Source: Syntrophomonadaceae bacterium (GTDB lineage Bacteria; Bacillota; Dethiobacteria; DTU022; UBA8154). Taken from it: a stretch of DNA of 47,233 nucleotides. The stretch is taken from assembly GCA_007135125.1 (NCBI GenBank), contig SLJK01000050.1, positions 1 through 47,233 of the forward strand, given 5' to 3'. Made by a program: the position numbers and the translations under genes. This document shows, piece by piece, positions 5,246 through 23,544 of the stretch; position 1 is the stretch's first letter, and the number at the start of each line of letters is the position of its first letter. Below the pieces are notes generated by a model. It was not told the origin of the DNA. It did not search any database and worked only from the letters and a program-made list of their open reading frames with translations.

Positions 5246-6628
5246 TTGAGTAAGGATTATGAAGTAATTATAATCGGTGCAGGACCGGCGGGTATATTTG
5301 CAGCCCTTTCCCTTGTGGAGAAGGGCTTAAATGTTCTTATCCTGGAAAAAGGCGCTCCTTTAGAAGAAAGAAGCTGCCCCAGGAAAGAGGGCTATTGTTC
5401 AAACTGCAGTTGTTGCGGAGTGCTGAACGGTTGGGGCGGAGCAGGTGCTTTTAGTGATGGCAAGCTAACTTTTTCACCTGAATTTGGGGGTAATCTCAAG
5501 CAATTTATTGATGATGAAAAGGAGCTTCAGGAACTTTTTCAGCAGGTAGATAAAATTTTTCTTGAACATGGCGCCCCTGCCGAAATATATGGAGCTGATG
5601 ATGCTGCAGTCCGAGAACTGCGCCGCCGTGCTTCAGCAGTGGATATAGAGTTTATTCCTGCTCCGATCAGGCACCTGGGCACGGAGAACTGTTACCGGGT
5701 TTTGCAGGACATCAGCACTACGCTGCAAAATAAATGCATCATAAGATTCCGTTCAATGGTGCAGCAGATCCTGGTGGAAAATGAAATGGTAACAGGTGTA
5801 AAGTTAGAAAGTGGGGAAATATTTTCCGCTCCCTGCGTTATCTGTGGGCCAGGAAGACAGGGAACTCCATGGTTTTTGCAGGAGTCGCAGCGTCTGGGGC
5901 TCACTATTCAAAATAACCCGGTGGATATCGGGGTAAGAGTGGAAATTCCAGCCTGGGTGATGGAAGATATTACTTCTAAGGTTTATGAATCAAAATTTCA
6001 CTATTATGCTCCTTTTTTCGATGACAAGGTCAGGACTTTTTGCATGAATCCTTACGGGCAGGTTGTTTTGGAGAACAGTGAAGGAGTAATTACAGTAAAC
6101 GGTCACAGCTACAGGGATAAGTTGCGGCACAGCGAAAATACCAATTTTGCCCTTTTGGTAAGCAAGAATTTTACAGAGCCTTTTAGAGAGCCAATCCGCT
6201 ATGGAAGATATATCGCCAGTTTGGCTAATATGCTGGGAGGGGGTGTGCTGGTTCAGAGACTGGGAGACCTTCTGGCTGGAAAACGTACTACCGGGGAGCG
6301 ACTCGCAAAAGGTATTGTGAAGCCAACCTTACAGGAGGCTACCCCCGGTGACCTCAGCCTGGTATTGCCGTACCGGTATCTTCGTTCTATTCTGGAGATG
6401 TTGGAAGCGCTGGACCGGTTGGCACCAGGCGTATATTCTCGCAACACTCTGCTATATGGAGTGGAAGTAAAATTTTATTCTCATCGCCTGGAATTAAGCA
6501 CCTCCCTGGAAACAGAGGTTGAAAACCTTTTTGCAGTAGGAGACGGCGCAGGTATAACCAGAGGGCTTGTTCAAGCTTCGGCTTCAGGCTTGTTGGCTGC
6601 AGGCGAGATTATCAGGCGCTTGCGATAA
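5246..6628 (+). CDS. FAD-dependent oxidoreductase/dehydrogenase with N-terminal Cys cluster
   Basis: GAGPAG Rossmann motif, CPx5CxxCxxC, GGAGAFSDGK, VRTFCMNP, GDGAGITRG; TTG 5246 chosen from SD spacing (ORF track 5225). Confidence 0.8.
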   Translation: MSKDYEVIIIGAGPAGIFAALSLVEKGLNVLILEKGAPLEERSCPRKEGYCSNCSCCGVLNGWGGAGAFSDGKLTFSPEFGGNLKQFIDDEKELQELFQQVDKIFLEHGAPAEIYGADDAAVRELRRRASAVDIEFIPAPIRHLGTENCYRVLQDISTTLQNKCIIRFRSMVQQILVENEMVTGVKLESGEIFSAPCVICGPGRQGTPWFLQESQRLGLTIQNNPVDIGVRVEIPAWVMEDITSKVYESKFHYYAPFFDDKVRTFCMNPYGQVVLENSEGVITVNGHSYRDKLRHSENTNFALLVSKNFTEPFREPIRYGRYIASLANMLGGGVLVQRLGDLLAGKRTTGERLAKGIVKPTLQEATPGDLSLVLPYRYLRSILEMLEALDRLAPGVYSRNTLLYGVEVKFYSHRLELSTSLETEVENLFAVGDGAGITRGLVQASASGLLAAGEIIRRLR

Positions 6629-6663
6629 AGTAGGTTAATAAAAAATCGAGGTGAAAGAAGCGG

Positions 6664-7941
6664 ATGGATTATGCAGCGGTAGCTGTTATAGGTACCCAGT
6701 GGGGAGATGAAGGAAAGGGCAAAATAGTAGATTACCTGGTGGAAAAAGCCGATGTGATTGTGCGCTACCAGGGTGGTCCAAATGCCGGCCATACTGTAGT
6801 GGTCGGAGAAGAAACTTATAAACTGCATCATCTGCCCTGTGGGGTAATTTCGGAAGGAAAAATTTCTATTCTGGGAAATGGTATGGTACTGGATGCTGTT
6901 ACCCTTTGCTCAGAATTGGAGGCCATGGAAGAGAAGCGAAGTATGCAGGAGCATCTTTTTATAAGCGATAGGGCACACCTTATAATGCCTTATCATAAAA
7001 GAATGGACGAGCTGGAAGAAGATTATAGAAAGGGAGCCAAAATCGGAACCACCATGAGGGGGGTTGGCCCAGCTTATGCCGATAAGGTTACACGTATGGG
7101 CCTGCGCTGTGGGGACCTTTTGGATGAGGATACTTTCAAGCAAAAGCTTGCGTTTATCTTGAAAAATAAAAACACAATCCTAGAAAAGATTTACGGAGTG
7201 GACGGTTTTTCACTGGAAGATTTTGAAGCGGAATTTTTTCCTTTTGCAAGACGTATTGTCCCTTTTATAACCGACACAACCGTTATGCTGGAGGAAGAAA
7301 TGGAAAAGGGTTCCAAAATTCTATTTGAAGGCGCTCAGGGAGCCATGCTTGATATAGATCACGGCACTTACCCCTATGTTACTTCTTCCAACCCGATAAC
7401 TGGAGGGATATGCATAGGTGCTGGAATCGCACCCCATAAAATTGGTCAAGTTGTAGGGGTGGCCAAGGCCTATAGCACCAGGGTCGGCAGTGGGCCGTTC
7501 CCAACCGAATTACTGGATGAGACAGGTGACAGTATACGCGAAAAGGGCAACGAGTACGGTACAACTACAGGACGCCCCAGAAGAATAGGTTGGTTAGATG
7601 GTGTTGCGTTACGCCATTCTTGTCGTCTTAACGGAACAACCTTTTTGGCGGTAACTTTGCTGGATGTACTTAGCGGGTTGGAAAAGGTTAAGATTGCCTA
7701 TGCCTATAATGTTGGTGAAGAGGTTGTCAATAATTTCCCGTCAGGTTTGCATATATTGGAAAAAAGTATTCCCCTTTACCAGGAATTTGAGGGGTGGGCG
7801 GAAGATATTTCTTCGGCCAGGTCCAAAACAGATCTTCCCCGGGCAGCTCAAGAATATTTGAGAGGTTTAGAAAGTATCACCGGGATAAAAGTGGGTATGG
7901 TTTCTGTAGGCCCTAGAAGGGATCAGACCATAATGATGTAA
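6664..7941 (+). CDS. purA: Adenylosuccinate synthetase
   Basis: QWGDEGKGK, GGPNAGHT, EGAQG, GTYPYVTSS, GTTTGRPRR. Confidence 0.98.
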   Translation: MDYAAVAVIGTQWGDEGKGKIVDYLVEKADVIVRYQGGPNAGHTVVVGEETYKLHHLPCGVISEGKISILGNGMVLDAVTLCSELEAMEEKRSMQEHLFISDRAHLIMPYHKRMDELEEDYRKGAKIGTTMRGVGPAYADKVTRMGLRCGDLLDEDTFKQKLAFILKNKNTILEKIYGVDGFSLEDFEAEFFPFARRIVPFITDTTVMLEEEMEKGSKILFEGAQGAMLDIDHGTYPYVTSSNPITGGICIGAGIAPHKIGQVVGVAKAYSTRVGSGPFPTELLDETGDSIREKGNEYGTTTGRPRRIGWLDGVALRHSCRLNGTTFLAVTLLDVLSGLEKVKIAYAYNVGEEVVNNFPSGLHILEKSIPLYQEFEGWAEDISSARSKTDLPRAAQEYLRGLESITGIKVGMVSVGPRRDQTIMM

Positions 7942-7998
7942 CTTGGTTATAAATACAAATAGGGCTTCCTGAACTGCCCACGAATTCCTATAAACACT

Positions 7999-8115
7999 AG
8001 CACGGGTACGCATCTCCATTTTGAAGTTCTGACAGGTGGAGCACATGGAACTACCTACAATCCCTTAGATTTCTTTGCACTTGACGAGAAAAAGGCTTAT
8101 GTAACCAGAAAATAA
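7999..8115 (+). pseudogene. C-terminal remnant of an M23 metallopeptidase gene
   Basis: Translates STGTHLHFEVLTGGAHGTTYNPLDFF...*, matching the M23 STGPHLHFEV...NP signature; in-frame TAG at 7960-7962 and no start codon. Confidence 0.7.
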
Positions 8116-8121
8116 AATTAA

Positions 8122-8138
8122 TGTAACATTCCTGTAAC
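8122..8138 (+). promoter_or_regulatory. WalR binding box
   Basis: TGTAAC-ATTCC-TGTAAC equals the TGTWAH-N5-TGTWAH consensus; a third TGTAAC at 8100-8105 is in 11-bp phase; lies just upstream of walR. Confidence 0.75.
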
Positions 8139-8158
8139 ATTTTGCCTGTATCATATTC

Positions 8159-8216
8159 TTAAGAGTTGACCCCCTCTTAATATATATTGTAAGTGGCCAG
8201 AAGGCCACTTTTTTTT
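8159..8216 (+). ncRNA. Candidate small RNA with C-rich loop
   Basis: Possible -10 TATCAT (8149-8154) after the WalR box; hairpin TTAAGAG/CTCTTAA with loop TTGACCCC, AT-rich linker, then intrinsic terminator; no ORF. Confidence 0.5.
8191..8216 (+). terminator. Intrinsic terminator
   Basis: AAGTGGCC-AGAA-GGCCACTT followed by T-run. Confidence 0.85.
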
Positions 8217-8248
8217 GTCCTTCTTTTTTTAGAATCTTTCGCCCTGTT

Positions 8249-8276
8249 GCAGGAGTTCGGCAGATATGGACGAAAT
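8249..8276 (+). promoter_or_regulatory. Possible SigH-type promoter for walR
   Basis: GCAGGAGTT-11 nt-GACGAAAT resembles RNAGGAWWW-(11-12)-RNNGAAT; lies downstream of the terminator. Confidence 0.35.
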
Positions 8277-8312
8277 AATTATGGTAAGTAACGAAGCAGG
8301 GGGCCGATTAAA

Positions 8313-8999
8313 CTGAAAGAGAAGATTCTGGTAGTAGATGATGAGAAGCCTATTGCAGAAATACTGGAATATAACTTAAAAGAAGAGGGATTTCTGGTTG
8401 TAATGGCTTATAATGGTGAAGAGGCTTTGCGCCTGGCCTTTGAAGAAAAGCCGGACCTGATCTTGTTGGATATAATGCTTCCTCTACTGGATGGTTTTAA
8501 TGTTTGCAAACGTATTAGAGAAAAGATGGATGTCCCCATAATTATGCTTACTGCCAAAGAAGCTGAAGTAGATAAAGTGCTTGGTTTGGAGCTGGGAGCT
8601 GATGATTACGTTACCAAGCCATTTAGCGCAAGAGAAATAATAGCCCGTATTAAAGCGACTTTGCGGCGCACGAAAATGCAGGACCGCGAATCAGAAATTT
8701 TAACTTGCGGTGAACTGGTACTGGATAGGGGTAGAATGGAGCTTTTTAAAGGTTCTGCGCAGATAGAGCTAACTTACAGGGAATTCACTCTCGTTGCTTT
8801 TTTGCTACAAAATGCTGGCTACGTTTTCAGCAGGGAAAAACTGCTGGAAGAAGTATGGGGCTATGATTACATTGGCGATTTGCGAACTGTGGATGTAACA
8901 GTGCGCAGGTTGCGTGAAAAGATTGAGGATGATCCGGGTAATCCGATATATATTTGTACCAGGCGTGGAGCCGGTTATTATCTGAGGAGGCCGTCCTGA
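8313..8999 (+). CDS. walR: WalR (YycF) response regulator, apparent CTG start
   Basis: Receiver N-terminus KEKILVVDDEKPIAEILEYNL lies upstream of the ORF-track ATG (8403); LLDIMLP, LGLELGADDYVTKPFS, RTVDVTVRRLREKIEDDP, TRRG.GY; followed by walK-yycH-yycI. Confidence 0.93.
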   Translation: MKEKILVVDDEKPIAEILEYNLKEEGFLVVMAYNGEEALRLAFEEKPDLILLDIMLPLLDGFNVCKRIREKMDVPIIMLTAKEAEVDKVLGLELGADDYVTKPFSAREIIARIKATLRRTKMQDRESEILTCGELVLDRGRMELFKGSAQIELTYREFTLVAFLLQNAGYVFSREKLLEEVWGYDYIGDLRTVDVTVRRLREKIEDDPGNPIYICTRRGAGYYLRRPS

Positions 9000-10831
9000 T
9001 GAGTGTCGGCATGCAGGGGAAAATTGTCCTGCTCTATTCTCTGCTGATTTTGTTTGCCATGCAAGTGAGCGGAGTTTATTTGGTTAATTCATTAGAAGAT
9101 TTTTACTTGCGCAACTATTCTTCTCAGCAGCTTTCTCAGGCAGAACTTATGGGAAGTTTCATGCGACGCTACCTGGCAGAGGGGGAAGAGCAGAAAGAAT
9201 ATATCTCCTCTCTTATTACTGAATTTGGTGGTGGTACTCCGGACACGGAAACGATAGTTTTGGACCGTTACGGTCGGCTGCTGGGAGGTGCGGAGCAGAG
9301 CTATCTGTCTTTACCGAGAGAACGTGTAATCCAGGATGATATTCTTCTGGCCCTGGCCGGGAATACGGTGGAGGCAATACGTGTTGAACCAGAAACGGGG
9401 ATGCGCAATTATTTTTTGGCCCTGCCTGTTAAAGATGGTTCAGCTGTGGAAGGCGTTATATTCGTGAGAGGATCCCTGGAAGATATTTACCTTAAACTTC
9501 ACGAGATTAAAATGATGCTTATTACCGGCTGGAGTATTGTGCTGGGGATTGCCATAGTGGTTAGTTTTATGTTGACAAGAACCATTACCAGGCCGATCCG
9601 GGAGGTGACTTCCAGGGCGGCGGCCATGGCCGATGGTGACTTCTCACAGCTGATAGAGGTGCGCTCCGAGGACGAAATCGGTGAACTGGGTGGGATGTTT
9701 AACTTTTTAACCTCTCAATTGCAGGACACCTTAAGTGCCATATCCGGGGAAAAGAATAAAGTGGAAGCCATCTTGAATTATATGACCGATGGCATAATTG
9801 CTTTTAATAACGAGAAAAAGGTTATCCACCTAAATCCGGCCGCAGAGACCGTGCTATCCTGGGTTGGTGTTTCCCCTGGCGAAGGTATGTCCGGGGAGAT
9901 GATTTTGGGTAATTTTTTTGATCGTGAGGAACTTGAGAAATTGCTAAGCAGCAGGGAACCTACTACCAGGGAAGTGCATCTGAAAGAGCCCTATGAAAAG
10001 ACGTTACAGATTCATTTCGCACCTTTTGAGGAAAAAGAACGGCAAAAAGGGATGCTGGTAGTTCTGCATGATTTTACCAGAGAAAGGGCTTATGCCCGTA
10101 TGCAAGAAGAGTTTGCAGCCAATGTTTCTCATGAGTTGCGAACACCCTTGACCACTATCAAAAACTATGTTGAAACTCTCTTAAATGGTGCACAGGATAA
10201 TGTAGAGGTAAGGGAACGTTTTTTGCATGTGGTGGACAACGAGACTGAACGAATGGTGAAATTGATTAAAGATCTTTTAATCCTTTCCCAGATTGATTAC
10301 CAGGAAGCAAGATGGTTGAAGGAAAATATCGATATTTCCGTGGTAGTAGAGGAAGTTATTGAGCAGGTAGAGATGGAAAGCAAAGCTAAAGAAATCGACC
10401 TTGCTGTCAAGATTCCCCACGAAAGAATAACTGTGTATCTTGATAAGGATAAGATAAGGCAGGTGCTGTTGAACCTGCTAAGCAATGCACTGAAGTTTAC
10501 CCCGTACGGCGGAAAAATCGAGATAAAAACCTTCCAGAAAGATGGTTACGTCCATATTTCCGTCTGCGATAACGGGGTAGGTATTCCCATTGATGAGAAG
10601 GAACGTGTTTTCGATCGTTTTTACCGGGTGGATAAGACCCGCTCCCGAGATTCCGGAGGTACAGGGTTGGGTCTTTCGATTGCCAAGCAGATTGTAGAGG
10701 CTCATGGGGGAAGCATATTTTTGGAGAGCAAACCTGGTGAGGGGACAGAGGTTACTTTTTCCCTGCCTCTTTTTATATCCAGAGACGATGAATCTTTAGC
10801 TACATCTTCATATATAGAAGTCCCGCCTTAA
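8999..10831 (+). CDS. walK: WalK (YycG) sensor histidine kinase
   Basis: Two TM helices, HAMP, PAS (YMTDGIIA, VVLHD), ANVSHELRTPLT, NLLSNALKFT, GGTGLGL; ATG 8999 overlaps the walR stop (TGATG), SD GAGGAGG. Confidence 0.93.
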   Translation: MSVGMQGKIVLLYSLLILFAMQVSGVYLVNSLEDFYLRNYSSQQLSQAELMGSFMRRYLAEGEEQKEYISSLITEFGGGTPDTETIVLDRYGRLLGGAEQSYLSLPRERVIQDDILLALAGNTVEAIRVEPETGMRNYFLALPVKDGSAVEGVIFVRGSLEDIYLKLHEIKMMLITGWSIVLGIAIVVSFMLTRTITRPIREVTSRAAAMADGDFSQLIEVRSEDEIGELGGMFNFLTSQLQDTLSAISGEKNKVEAILNYMTDGIIAFNNEKKVIHLNPAAETVLSWVGVSPGEGMSGEMILGNFFDREELEKLLSSREPTTREVHLKEPYEKTLQIHFAPFEEKERQKGMLVVLHDFTRERAYARMQEEFAANVSHELRTPLTTIKNYVETLLNGAQDNVEVRERFLHVVDNETERMVKLIKDLLILSQIDYQEARWLKENIDISVVVEEVIEQVEMESKAKEIDLAVKIPHERITVYLDKDKIRQVLLNLLSNALKFTPYGGKIEIKTFQKDGYVHISVCDNGVGIPIDEKERVFDRFYRVDKTRSRDSGGTGLGLSIAKQIVEAHGGSIFLESKPGEGTEVTFSLPLFISRDDESLATSSYIEVPP

Positions 10832-10853
10832 GTATTTCAGGGAGGTATGTTAT

Positions 10854-12446
10854 TTGTTAGAAAAGGCTAAAACCATTTTGCTGATATTCTTTATTGTTTC
10901 AAGCCTGGTGCTAACATACAGGCTGTGGTTCGGTGGCCCCCACCTGGAAGAAGTGATGCTTCCAAGCTACGAGTATGCTTTCTTTACACCTCCTCCGGAG
11001 CATTCAGAGGTTATCAAGCCTTCCAAGATACTTTACCGTGGAGGAGACGAAGAAGCTCTTTTGTATTACCGTGGTCAGGAAGGCTATGAAGATCTATGGG
11101 ATACTCTTTTAGATTATTTGAAAGACAGTATTCTTGCAAATGGCCTGCAAAATATAAGTGAGGAAGATAAAAACAACCTTATTGATGGGCTATCTACTCA
11201 CGTGCTGGTTTATTTAAACCCTTTTGTTCCGCTGGAGTTTCTGGCGCCTGAAAGGGTTTATGGGGATAACAGGGACACAGAGGTCAAAGAGATAGTTATG
11301 GTAGAAAATGATAGCTCCTGGTATATGTTTTTAAGAACAGAAAATGATAACCTTTTATCTACAGCCCTTCAGTTAGATAACGAGTTTAGAGAAACCGTTT
11401 CTTCCAAACAGGGGCATCTGTACATCCATCTGCCTGATTCCCTTTTTCTTGATATAGAGGGGGATTGTAAGAAGCAGTTGCGTGAACAGTTAGAAGATCA
11501 GCAGGATCAGGAAGAAGCGGAACCGGTGGAAGAGGGGGAAGATGAAGGAGACTCAGAAGAAACAAATAATGACTCCGCTATAGCTGAAGAGAATGAAGAA
11601 GAAAATAATGGTAATAACGGTGCAAAAGATGATGAAGTAAATGAGGCAAATGCGGAAAGTGAAGATGATGAATTGAAGGATGAAGTAGATGAAGTAGAGG
11701 ATGTCCAAGATGAAGAACCCCCTGCTGATTTATGGGAAATTAAGACAGAAGGAAATCTTTATCTTCCCGAAAAGGAGCTTTTGGGGGCGGAGGTAGCTTT
11801 GGAAAAGGAAGATATTCCCGTAGGGGAACTTGTCCAAGCTTTCTTTTTTGACCCCTCCATGGCCAGGCGTATTGAAGAAAGGGACGAGGCCATATTTTTT
11901 ACCGATGGCGAAAAAGGATTGCGCATCTATCCTACAGGACTTGTGGAATATGCTGCCCCTATGCTGGAACGTGGCCTCAGTACCATCTCTTACAGTACTG
12001 CCCTAAAAAAAGCAGCTGAAAGCCAGAGCTTGTATGGCGGTTGGCAGGAAGGAAGTTATCTGGTAGAGTCGCTGAGGACAGAAACTGGCTACAGGTTTAA
12101 ATGGAGCCCGGTCATCAAAGGTCTGCCTCTCGAAGGTGAAAATGCTGGTAGTGAGATGCTGGTCAATGAGCAAGGTATCCCTTATTACAGCAGAAATTTT
12201 TTTGTAGCTAACAATTACAGGGGAAGCATACCTTTTCGGCCTTATGCAGAAGCTCTCTGTGAAGCAATTATCCTTTATAGAGATGAACTTGAAGAGCGCA
12301 GGGCCACCCTTTTATTATTGAAACCTGTTATGTATATTTTAGGTGAAGGGGAAGAACAAAAGGGCGTCCCTGCCTGGAAGGTAATTTTTGAAGAAACGGG
12401 AGCAATATACTTGCATTGGAGAAGCCTTGAGGAGCTTCCCGGATAA
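10854..12446 (+). CDS. yycH: YycH/WalH-like regulator with acidic insertion
   Basis: N-terminal EKAKTILL..IVSSLVLTYRLW anchor typical of YycH; third gene of the wal operon; TTG with SD GGGAGGT. Confidence 0.75.
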   Translation: MLEKAKTILLIFFIVSSLVLTYRLWFGGPHLEEVMLPSYEYAFFTPPPEHSEVIKPSKILYRGGDEEALLYYRGQEGYEDLWDTLLDYLKDSILANGLQNISEEDKNNLIDGLSTHVLVYLNPFVPLEFLAPERVYGDNRDTEVKEIVMVENDSSWYMFLRTENDNLLSTALQLDNEFRETVSSKQGHLYIHLPDSLFLDIEGDCKKQLREQLEDQQDQEEAEPVEEGEDEGDSEETNNDSAIAEENEEENNGNNGAKDDEVNEANAESEDDELKDEVDEVEDVQDEEPPADLWEIKTEGNLYLPEKELLGAEVALEKEDIPVGELVQAFFFDPSMARRIEERDEAIFFTDGEKGLRIYPTGLVEYAAPMLERGLSTISYSTALKKAAESQSLYGGWQEGSYLVESLRTETGYRFKWSPVIKGLPLEGENAGSEMLVNEQGIPYYSRNFFVANNYRGSIPFRPYAEALCEAIILYRDELEERRATLLLLKPVMYILGEGEEQKGVPAWKVIFEETGAIYLHWRSLEELPG

Positions 12447-12488: not shown

Positions 12489-13391
12489 ATGGATCTTTCC
12501 AGGGCCAAAACAGTCCTGATCTTTACCTTTTTGTTTTTAAATATCTTTCTTCTTTACCATATCCTGGAAGAGGAGGCAGGTACCTCTGACTTCTTTAGCC
12601 AGGAGGAACACGTTACCGGGCTGGAAGAGGCTTTGGAAGAAGCAGATCTGGTGCTGGATATAACCCTTCCTCGAGGGGGTATGAGGTGTGCTTATCTTGT
12701 AGTAGAACCGTGGAGAATAGAAGAGGAAATGCTTATTACTGAGCTTTGGAATGCTCTTGAAGACGAGGAGAGACCTTTCCCTGAAGTGGCAAAAAATATT
12801 GATAGTGCTCAGGGTGAAACCGATTCAGAAATAACAATATACCAATTTGGCAATTATGAGCTCGCTGTAAGCGAAGAGGGATCACTATCGTTTAAAAGGC
12901 TAAGCTTTCCGTCCTCCGGAGAAGAATATATGGAAACAGAAAATATTGAGGAAGATTATATGGAACTGGCCGGAGAGTTTATAGAACAGATCTCTTTTTT
13001 GCAAGGTTTTAGCCATGACTTCTACCAGCAAAGAGAGGGACAGGTAATTATTTATTATGCACAGGAGTTTGAAGGTTTTCCACTTTACACCGGATATCTG
13101 CAGCTATTTATGAGTAATGGCCATATCGAAGCATTTCACCTATATCGCTTGCAGCCCAGAGAGTTTGCACAGCAGACCAGAGAAATTATCCCTCCTTCTA
13201 CCGCGCTGCTTCGTTTTCTGGAGGAATATAGTGGCGGCTTTGCAGGAGCAGAGATTCTTGAATTTTCTTTGGGTTATTACAGCCAAAAATATGACGCTGA
13301 CAGGTGGGAAATTCCTCCTGCATGGAGGATTCGACTGAGTAATGACGAATTATATTATATTAACGCTTTTACCGGTTCTCTCGAACGTTAG
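12489..13391 (+). CDS. yycI: YycI/WalI-like regulator
   Basis: MDLSRAKTVLIFTFLFLNIFL N-terminus, LGYY...PAWRI...YYINAFTG C-terminus. Confidence 0.85.
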   Translation: MDLSRAKTVLIFTFLFLNIFLLYHILEEEAGTSDFFSQEEHVTGLEEALEEADLVLDITLPRGGMRCAYLVVEPWRIEEEMLITELWNALEDEERPFPEVAKNIDSAQGETDSEITIYQFGNYELAVSEEGSLSFKRLSFPSSGEEYMETENIEEDYMELAGEFIEQISFLQGFSHDFYQQREGQVIIYYAQEFEGFPLYTGYLQLFMSNGHIEAFHLYRLQPREFAQQTREIIPPSTALLRFLEEYSGGFAGAEILEFSLGYYSQKYDADRWEIPPAWRIRLSNDELYYINAFTGSLER

Positions 13392-13445: not shown

Positions 13446-14714
13446 TTGTCTGAGAAGCTATTGATTACCGGGAAACAAACGATCAAGGGCCGGGTAAAAG
13501 TTAACGGCGCCAAAAATGCAGCTGTTGCTATTTTGCCGGCAGCTTTACTAACTGAAGGCCAGGGGGTCATAAGTAACTTGCCCAGGATAACCGATATCCA
13601 CATGCTGGTAGAAATTCTATCTGCCCTGGGTGCTGATATCTCTTTCAATAAGGAAGGGAGCCTGGTAGTAAATTCTGCTGGAGTTAATAGGTTTGACCCT
13701 CCTCCTCAGTTGGTTAACAGGCTGAGAGCTTCTTATTACTTGATGGGTAGTTTACTAGGACGTTTCAAGCAAGTTGAAATTCCCATGCCCGGTGGTTGTG
13801 ACCTGGGACCGCGCCCTATCGATCAGCATATCAAGGGTTTTTCAGCACTGGGTGCACAGGTGGAAATGGAGCGAGGCATGGTCATACTTAAAGCCAAAAA
13901 ATTGACGGGGGCGCATATATATTTAGACGTAATTAGCGTGGGAGCGACGATAAACATAATGCTGGCCGCGGTTTTGGCAGAAGGGAAAACAGTTATCGAA
14001 AATGTGGCCAGGGAACCTGAAATTGTGGACGTGGCCAATTTTTTGAATGCCATGGGTGCACATGTTGTAGGTGCCGGAACCGATGTTATTAAGATCCAGG
14101 GTGTTAAGGAGCTGGGCGGGGTGGAGCATAATGTTATCCCTGACCGCATTGAAGCAGGTACCTTTATGATTGCTGCTGCTGCCACGGGAGGAGAAGCAGT
14201 AATTGAAGAGGTGATACCAAAACACCTGGATTCTATAATAGCAAAATTAAGGGAAGTGGGAAAGGAATTAGAGGTTGGGCCTGACTGGATCAAGGTTATG
14301 GCCAATAATCCCTTTTACCCCTTGGATCTTAAAACATTTCCTTATCCAGGATTTCCTACTGATCTGCAGCCCCCTGTTATGGTGCTGTTAACCATGGCTC
14401 CGGGGCTTAGTTTCATTACCGAGAATGTTTTTGAAAGGCGTTTCAGGCACGTGGATGAACTGTGTAAAATGGGAGCCAAGATTAAACTGGAAGGACGAAC
14501 TGCTATTATTGAGGGTGGGCACGAACTGACAGGTGCTTCTGTACAAGCCGGCGATCTCCGGGGAGGGGCAGCATTTATTATCGCCGGGCTTATCTCTGAA
14601 GGGGAAACTTATCTGGATGGCCTGGAGCATATAGATCGGGGGTATGAAAGAATAGAAGAGCGTTTTTCTGGGTTAGGGGTCAAGCTGCAACGAATTACTT
14701 CTGAAAAACCATGA
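13446..14714 (+). CDS. murA: UDP-N-acetylglucosamine 1-carboxyvinyltransferase
   Basis: GAKNAA, LRAS, PGGC.LG.RPID.H (catalytic Cys), PDRIEAGT, YPGFPTD.Q, DLRGGA, IDRGYE. Confidence 0.96.
   Translation: MSEKLLITGKQTIKGRVKVNGAKNAAVAILPAALLTEGQGVISNLPRITDIHMLVEILSALGADISFNKEGSLVVNSAGVNRFDPPPQLVNRLRASYYLMGSLLGRFKQVEIPMPGGCDLGPRPIDQHIKGFSALGAQVEMERGMVILKAKKLTGAHIYLDVISVGATINIMLAAVLAEGKTVIENVAREPEIVDVANFLNAMGAHVVGAGTDVIKIQGVKELGGVEHNVIPDRIEAGTFMIAAAATGGEAVIEEVIPKHLDSIIAKLREVGKELEVGPDWIKVMANNPFYPLDLKTFPYPGFPTDLQPPVMVLLTMAPGLSFITENVFERRFRHVDELCKMGAKIKLEGRTAIIEGGHELTGASVQAGDLRGGAAFIIAGLISEGETYLDGLEHIDRGYERIEERFSGLGVKLQRITSEKP

Positions 14715-21858: not shown

Positions 21859-23544
<1,686 letters not shown>

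Follow-up and report, generated by a model that had tools for sequence, protein, structure and literature searches.

A predicted small RNA gene with a WalR-type promoter and an anti-Shine-Dalgarno-like 5′ end beside walR in Dethiobacteria

What is encoded in the interval between purA and walR of a Syntrophomonadaceae bacterium from the class Dethiobacteria, and does it serve walR or stand on its own? The question arises in a contig of 47,233 nucleotides (SLJK01000050.1, positions 1 to 47,233 of the forward strand, assembly GCA_007135125.1), in the following called the window, in which purA ends at 7941, walR follows downstream and a predicted small RNA (sRNA) gene lies in between; the features from the M23 remnant to walK described below are on the plus strand. 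WalRK is the one two-component system which is essential in many Firmicutes, the reason for this essentiality is debated, and the genes it is known to control encode proteins, mostly autolysins. An inspection of the nucleotide sequence alone (the original prediction) had suggested that phosphorylated WalR (WalR~P) induces an sRNA which dampens the translation of walR. After comparison with related genomes we consider it rather probable that positions ~8161-8216 represent a stand-alone gene for a trans-acting sRNA of ~55 nt, with a WalR-type promoter and an anti-Shine-Dalgarno (anti-SD) 5′ end.

Anatomy and conservation of the unit

The centre of the promoter region is the direct repeat TGTAAC-ATTCC-TGTAAC (8122-8138), a WalR-type box which occupies the position of a -35 hexamer. 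Exactly 10 nt 3′ of this box follows the -10 hexamer TATCAT (8149-8154), and no -35-like hexamer was seen 17 nt 5′ of it. A distal half-site TGTAAC (8100-8105) is located 22 bp 5′ of the first half of the box, giving three half-sites (8100-8105, 8122-8127 and 8133-8138) at the offsets 0, 22 and 33. The A-rich spacer between the distal half-site and the box (CAGAAAATAAAATTAA, 8106-8121), whose columns -56 to -49 are A-rich in 30-43 of 49 copies, may by its sequence contain a degenerate fourth half-site in 11-bp phase.

This anatomy was scored on 68 copies of the unit. Both half-sites of the box match TGTWAH perfectly in 50 copies, the other 18 being scored with at least one mismatch, and the distance between box and -10 is exactly 10 nt in 67/68, the sole exception having a 10-nt solution as well. 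The -10 hexamer reads TATAAT in 28/68 copies and ends 8-11 nt before the sequence UUGAC in 66/68. The distal half-site, with a match of at least 5/6, is found in 63/68 copies, and its offset is exactly 22 in 59/68. The AG before UUGAC is near-invariant (A in 48 and G in 49 of 49 copies) and positions further 5′ vary freely. Because the invariance of the sequence begins there, we predict that the transcript starts close to this AG; the start is estimated at 7 ± 2 nt after the -10 hexamer.

The predicted sRNA itself (8161-8216, ~53-58 nt, with its 3′ end in a T run) is matched between 8162 and 8216 by R1, a covariance model built from the RNA part only (65.9 bits, E 1.3e-12). It begins with a C-rich, anti-SD-like seed, AG-UUGACCCCCUCUU-AA (8164-8180, 13-nt core 8166-8178), which an AU-rich linker joins to a hairpin with the stem AAGTGGCC/GGCCACTT and the loop AGAA, followed by a T run (8191-8218, stem-loop 8191-8210). 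A fold of 71 nt of the unit reaches -18.7 kcal/mol (z = -3.49), which none of 200 shuffled sequences equals. Such a hairpin with T run ends 46 of 47 full copies (mean -14.0 kcal/mol), and the predicted RNA lengths of the full copies range from ~48 to 71 nt with a median near 58. In the alignment of 46 distinct rows 92.9% of the cells of the terminator stem are paired, compensatory changes occur in 7/8 pairs (54 cells), none of 500 shuffles reaches the covariation score, and slid registers of the stem pair at only 23-49%. A GC-rich hairpin with U tract and compensatory stem changes is, on the strength of these comparisons, an intrinsic (rho-independent) terminator.

The half-sites, the box, the -10, the hairpin and the terminator named by the original prediction are thus all present, and its discrete non-coding unit of ~57 nt is borne out by the comparison as a predicted unit of ~55 nt with own promoter, C-rich seed and terminator. 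A search of the unit against Rfam, also suggested there, gave no family match and only six weak hits (E up to 10) far below the gathering scores. Two other readings of the stretch were discarded: a sigma-70 promoter TTAAGA-18-TATATT is unconserved and would lie inside the RNA, and a mini-ORF TTG-ACC-CCC-TCT-TAA (MTPS-stop) loses its stop in the copies with CTCTTTTTATA or CTCTTTAAATA. No reading frame is conserved in the sRNA across the compared copies.

The conservation of the stretch is far beyond chance. When positions 7942-8330 were compared by blastn with 41 related genomes, the part from the distal half-site to the terminator (~8097-8217, ~120 nt) was found with 71-82% identity in 24/24 other genomes of the family, and other families gave matches too, frequently with several hits in one genome. 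The sequence TTGACCCCC and its surroundings are the same in all 30 loci recovered via the blastn hits, the seed core 8166-8178 is also unaltered in 20 representatives of five further families, and in total eight families share the 13 seed nucleotides without variation. A search for the exact motif in single genomes of 185,579 species returned 46 stretches with mixed submitter labels (Dethiobacter, Dethiobacteria, Syntrophomonadaceae, Bacillota and some Desulfovibrionaceae). Many of them are identical with the loci already known from genomes of the class; the pooled set comprises 49 unique copies.

With the model R1 matches were found in 140/149 genomes of the class, in 59/60 genera and in 91/94 high-quality genomes, with 1-5 matches per genome and often 2-5 copies. 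An even sample of 151 genomes from the whole phylum gave 27 R1 matches at E <= 0.01; five of them belong to the class and most of the others are weak. Two strong matches from outside the class were inspected and show the same promoter and terminator, with the seeds UUAACCCCCUCUU and CUGACCCCCUCUU, and in the latter case walR follows. The arrangement of box, seed and terminator, whose conservation the original prediction had proposed to check, is therefore kept across the class. Judged by comparison alone, that is by promoter, start, seed, terminator and presence in 140/149 genomes, this defines an sRNA family which is conserved throughout the class Dethiobacteria and occurs in at least two inspected genomes outside of it.

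Studying the neighbourhood of the 49 unique copies reveals that an OmpR-type regulator gene follows on the same strand in 26 of them according to Pfam (27 by motif), and that an intact LysM-G5-M23 peptidase gene lies 5′ of the unit on the same strand in 20. Another 20 copies are found in other contexts, 13 with a convergent downstream gene, three with a gene on the same strand and four with none in the locus. The neighbours of these copies include MatE, PEPCK, CutA1, DUF554, PALP enzymes, the baeRF family and a solute-binding protein. The unit occurs in unrelated contexts with convergent neighbours and therefore appears to be a gene, not just a terminator or a leader of walR; as far as its sequence tells, it has its own promoter and its own terminator, independent of the flanking genes.

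The genome of the window harbours three members of the family (8162-8216 in the window, contig C24 14108-14172 and contig C118 3390-3451). The copy on C24 has the standard seed, follows 2 nt after a baeRF (bacterial eRF1-like) gene and its first half-site reads TGAAAT; the same order of baeRF gene and sRNA is found in a genome of the same genus (G001). The copy on C118 (L086), whose neighbours are divergent and convergent, combines a perfect TGTAAT-N5-TGTAAC box, TATAAT and a terminator with the seed UUUGACCUCCUUUU, which contains ACCUCCUUU, presumably the motif at the 3′ end of 16S rRNA. The seeds of paralogues within a genome can thus differ (CCCCCUCUU versus CCUCCUUUU). In the whole genome of 2.0 Mb the pattern TGTAAY-N5-TGTAAY occurs only three times, two of which are at members of the sRNA family.

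The regulator, the seed and the proposed action

Which regulator reads the repeat? The box 8122-8138 fits 17/17 positions of TGTWAH-N5-TGTWAH, which we take to be the WalR consensus of B. subtilis. By our reading it also fits 16/17 positions of the motif TGTHH-N6-WGTNDD given for the WalR ChIP-seq of S. aureus (PMC10746227). The pattern TGTWAH-N5-TGTWAH is found four times in the window, where 0.20 matches would be expected, and none of 100 shuffles reaches four; two of the four matches are the box 8122-8138 itself, read on both strands. The other two, 14375-14391 and 22435-22451, lie inside coding sequence (murA and the open reading frame (ORF) 21922-23544) and are probably due to chance.

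The DNA-binding domain of the regulator encoded in the window is closest to the solved domains of VicR, YycF and WalR, and over its stretch RTVDVTVRRLREKIED the alignments show no difference from B. subtilis YycF (2d1v) or E. faecalis VicR (2hwv). Because it shares the recognition helix with YycF and VicR, the same DNA specificity is likely. PhoB recruits RNA polymerase at promoters of the same geometry. The promoters of the streptococcal csRNAs, which depend on CiaR, are described with two repeats separated by five nt, 10 bp and then the -10, and no -35 (PMC3091779). Since this geometry of repeat, 10 bp and -10 without -35 matches the CiaR-activated promoters, activation is favoured over repression, and on these grounds we regard it as likely that WalR activates the promoter of the sRNA.

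The original prediction had placed the seed in the loop of a hairpin formed by TTAAGAG (8159-8165) and CTCTTAA (8174-8180), which enclose TTGACCCC. This hairpin (8159-8180) is only partial in the window: depending on the true start a stem of 3-7 bp could form in this organism, leaving UUGACCCC in the loop. The hairpin is not conserved. Its 5′ arm beyond the AG varies without compensation in the other copies and is located at or 5′ of the predicted start, so that the seed would be a free 5′ end in most of them; when folding begins at the conserved AG, no nucleotide of the 13-nt seed is paired in 39/46 copies. The conserved design, as predicted from these folds, is a free 5′ seed and not a loop.

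The action which we propose starts from a promoter without -35, in which TGTAAY-N5-TGTAAY lies exactly 10 nt 5′ of the -10 and a third half-site is placed another two turns of the helix 5′ of it. WalR~P, encoded next door, would bind these repeats and recruit RNA polymerase in the manner of CiaR and PhoB. The RNA would start 1-4 nt before the invariant UUGACCCCCUCUU, continue with the AU-rich linker and end at the intrinsic terminator. Its C-rich 5′ end, which is predicted to be single-stranded in most copies, would be complementary to G-rich SD sequences such as AAGAGGGGG(UCAA). The seed might then pair with the translation-initiation regions of several mRNAs and block the entry of ribosomes, the mRNA of walR being a possible target in the genus of the window and not the conserved one.

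If WalR drives the family, it is RNA genes that would carry the strongest consensus WalR boxes of these genomes, and a translational layer would be added to cell-wall homeostasis. In the literature searched we found no WalR-driven sRNA, although RNAs which act on walR are described there. A wider and much more tentative idea, which we rate as rather unlikely, is that WalRK has long had a post-transcriptional branch as well, one not confined to a single class, in which WalR~P-driven RNAs of 55 nt mimic the anti-SD end of 16S rRNA with their invariant 5′ end and throttle mRNAs with G-rich ribosome-binding sites, walR included as a negative feedback in some lineages, among them that of the window.

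Alternative explanations

Several observations speak against a WalR-activated RNA which acts on many mRNAs. Six OmpR-type regulators are encoded in the genome. The box covers the -35 position, which could instead mean repression. The genome has 27 relaxed boxes, of which 20 are intergenic, and no cell-wall gene is among the five annotated genes behind them (GroEL, TrkH, UbiD, a radical-SAM enzyme and one without family); likewise, a relaxed box precedes only one of the 15 M23 genes for which 162-430 nt further 5′ were at hand. Most sRNA seeds are kept less strictly than these 13 nt, which are invariant in the whole class and may have a partner other than many mRNAs. The 21 best predicted targets in the genome of the window, ranked by duplex energies, have no common theme. 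They comprise an alpha/beta hydrolase, two TraB paralogues, a methyltransferase, a GXGXG oxidoreductase, OpuAC, an IF-2B family protein, ribosomal S8, DivIC, a SurA-like protein, TusA, an amidohydrolase, an FAD flavoprotein, a CO-dehydrogenase flavoprotein, an FAA hydrolase, ATP synthase c, an arginase and four proteins without family.

Between the genome of the window and ~1.8 Mb of a genome from another family (G126), compared through 669 reciprocal-best pairs, the joint top 5% holds one hit for the seed against three for the reversed-seed control and 1.7 expected. For the joint top 10% the numbers are 13 for the seed, 11 for the control and 6.7 expected. No conserved mRNA target thus emerges from this two-genome scan, a weak negative given its home-made gene calls and its use of duplex energies only. 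In a metatranscriptome run 49% of the sequence words of positions 6000-12000 are present; its contigs (depth ~4-6) cover 7400-8108 and 8407-8876 and nothing of 8109-8406, which weighs in neither direction.

Among the best predicted seed pairings in the genome are the start sites of the two TraB/PrgY-family paralogues (C52:9944-10249 and C14:6142-7317; -23.7 and -19.8 kcal/mol), which are near-identical (AAGGGGGUUAACCG-UUG and AAGGGGGUAGACCG-UUG).

The alternative which survives best accepts the RNA and questions its control: the repeats could be bound by another OmpR-family regulator, or WalR could act as a repressor, so that the RNA would not be induced by WalR. One of the six OmpR-type regulators is encoded ~5 kb from the second sRNA copy on contig C24, the box overlaps the contact site of RNA polymerase, and the motif search recovered no classical WalR regulon. 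Read one base further on, the half-sites become GTAACA, which is near the PhoP repeat TTAACA. However, within each half-site TGT is conserved best, in agreement with the WalR consensus, WalR shares an identical recognition helix with YycF, and the linkage to walR is retained in different families and in one inspected genome from another class. Moreover, a fixed 10-nt spacing without -35 is the type of an activator-dependent promoter (PMC3091779). We therefore consider control by another regulator, or repression by WalR, unlikely, although it deserves more weight than the explanations which follow.

The second alternative is the circuit of the original prediction, in which the main task of the RNA is a negative feedback: induced by WalR~P, its looped C-rich stretch would block the ribosome-binding site of walR. 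The duplex of the seed with the ribosome-binding region of walR (AAGCAGGGGGCCGA, 8294-8307), calculated with RNAduplex, has -17.8 kcal/mol and 14 pairs with one bulge and one interior mismatch, which reproduces the pairing of 8166-8178 previously drawn by hand. In a ranking by duplex energy only of ~2106 home-made translation starts from the genome of the window, this site takes rank 51/2107 with a 24-nt seed and 32/2103 with a 17-nt seed, while the reversed seed reaches only -13.5 kcal/mol and rank 339/2103. The pairing is real and fairly specific in this genome. In addition the hairpin of 3-7 bp can form here, and the gene lies directly 5′ of walR in 26-27/49 unique copies, also in another class.

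We then scored the walR sites of 27 relatives, which as kin are not independent, against background translation starts from crude gene calls. Their mean energy is -12.7 versus -10.1 kcal/mol for the background, GGGGG is found in 10/27 sites versus 9.6% of the background sites, and 7/27 sites belong to the top 5% and 14/27 to the top 25%. Seven sites, on the other hand, are worse than the background median (-5.4 to -9.8 kcal/mol). The site of G126 has -8.0 kcal/mol (75th percentile), and three walR-linked copies in distant families have -9.2, -18.2 and -17.4 kcal/mol. The seed is unaltered in all relatives scored. Because the pairing is weak or absent in many relatives with an unaltered seed, a feedback on walR cannot explain the conservation. 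Further points against it are the unconserved 5′ arm of the hairpin, the many genomes with extra copies far from walR and the 31-50 other sites in the genome which pair as well or better. As the main and conserved function the feedback is improbable, whereas in some lineages, to judge from the pairing, it may operate.

The third alternative also takes the RNA as real and lets its invariant 5′ end bind a protein or one fixed RNA partner, as a sponge or decoy, instead of many ribosome-binding sites. The invariance of the 13 nt across eight families would fit to this, as would the negative outcome of the two-genome scan and the seed of the paralogue on C118 with its copy of ACCUCCUUU, presumed to be the 16S rRNA end. 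Yet the scan was crude (home-made gene calls, two genomes, duplex energy alone), no candidate partner emerged, and C-rich single-stranded seeds are an established anti-SD device in Gram-positive bacteria (PMC4409812). Such a single partner therefore seems quite improbable to us.

Finally, the idea that the stretch serves only to terminate purA and the M23 remnant, or is an attenuator in the leader of walR, the rest being conserved promoter or spacer DNA without an RNA of its own, was already considered in the original prediction and can draw on the position of the terminator as the first one after purA and the remnant and on the location of the unit 5′ of walR in about half of the copies, but it is hardly credible in view of the complete units of box, -10, seed and terminator in unrelated places (13/20 with a convergent downstream gene), of the invariant 13-mer between promoter and terminator which a terminator alone does not need, of the promoter-like motif which walR itself has in 25/31 loci, and of the foldings, in which no alternative antiterminator fold appeared.

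The surroundings of the gene and its relation to known systems

A stand-alone sRNA gene remains the reading we prefer, and the genes around it fit into the following picture. Between purA and the promoter lies the C-terminal remnant of an M23 peptidase gene of the LysM-G5-M23 type (7963-8115, ~50 codons, ...TGTHLHFEV...), which has no start and follows an in-frame stop; its final codons are overlapped by the distal half-site, and in the genus of the window purA abuts this remnant. As the first terminator after purA and the remnant, 8191-8218 must also end their transcripts.

Between the terminator of the sRNA and walR lies a separate promoter-like motif of walRK, GCAGGAGTT-11 nt-GACGAAATA (8249-8277), of the general form RNAGGA-N3, 10-13 nt, N3-GAA(A/T). 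Of the 31 spacers linked to walR 25 contain it, one of them in a genome of another class, and it resembles what we take to be the sigma-H promoter consensus. Because walR has its own motif after the terminator, it probably does not depend on the upstream promoter.

The gene walR (8313-8999) encodes a response regulator of the yycF type, with resp_reg_YycF as the best NCBIfam match of its product (327.6 bits, below the cut-off of 340). It has no ATG, GTG or TTG start; the CTG at 8313, which aligns with the GTG, ATG and TTG starts of the relatives and lies 9 nt after AGGGGG (8298-8303), as it does in the same-genus genome G001, is the probable start, with ATT at 8307 as the alternative. The sensor histidine kinase gene walK (8954-10831) follows, and the best NCBIfam match of its product is HK_WalK (533.2 bits, below the cut-off of 725). 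Two ORFs in the positions of yycH and yycI (10854-12446 and 12489-13391) gave no match in an NCBIfam scan, the only one made on them, and behind them lies murA (13446-14714). In G126 (contig C10, L142/L217) the RNA gene is located after an M23 gene and walR starts ~1.07 kb downstream, so the linkage to walR looks looser there; its walR site does not pair.

Regulation between a two-component system and an sRNA is known from other bacteria. The Hfq-dependent sRNAs OmrA and OmrB of enterobacteria are proteobacterial and unrelated in sequence to the RNA described here. Activated by OmpR, they feed back on EnvZ-OmpR (PMC5175337), which is the type of circuit proposed by the original prediction, whereas the feedback on walR is only predicted and unconserved. 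Control of walR at the RNA level is in print too: for S. aureus, regulation of walR by SprX is reported (PMC10746227), and an antisense RNA of walR is reported from E. faecalis (PMC13501541). Both differ from the RNA of the window in sequence, one of them is cis-antisense, and neither is described as WalR-activated in the titles and the table entry concerned. The statement of the original prediction that no such circuit had been described thus has to be corrected in view of OmrA/B and SprX.

The closest known systems are RoxS/RsaE of Bacillus and Staphylococcus and the csRNAs of Streptococcus. RoxS is activated by ResD and pairs through C-rich regions with SD sequences (PMC4409812); activation by a response regulator (ResD or SrrA) and a C-rich anti-SD stretch which blocks the initiation of translation are thus common to RoxS/RsaE and, as a prediction, to our RNA. 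RoxS, as described there, is longer and has three to four C-rich regions, some of them in loops, and a ResD site near -65. The sRNA of the window, unlike RsaE, has a single C-rich stretch and does not match the RsaE model of Rfam.

The csRNAs and our RNA both have a direct repeat of hexamers with a gap of 5 nt, then 10 bp and the -10, and no -35, and the csRNAs, too, carry their anti-SD stretches in unpaired regions (PMC3091779). They are likewise short (51-202 nt), end with a terminator, occur as several paralogues per genome and depend on an OmpR-family regulator from a two-component system of the cell envelope (PMC3091779, PMC4507080). The differences concern the repeat, which is (N)TTAAG-N5-TTTAAG for CiaR and of the TGTAAY type in the 68 copies scored here, and the fold, since csRNAs have two stem-loops with the seed between the stems, whereas our RNA has one stem-loop and a seed at the 5′ end. 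Further, the RNA of the window has no CAU anti-start codon, comes from another clade and has one copy linked to the regulator gene, and no csRNA is among the six weak Rfam hits. With its different repeat and without a match to any Rfam model, the sRNA belongs neither to the csRNAs nor to RoxS/RsaE. The search logic of promoter plus terminator that is known from the csRNAs nevertheless carries over to another regulator and another clade.

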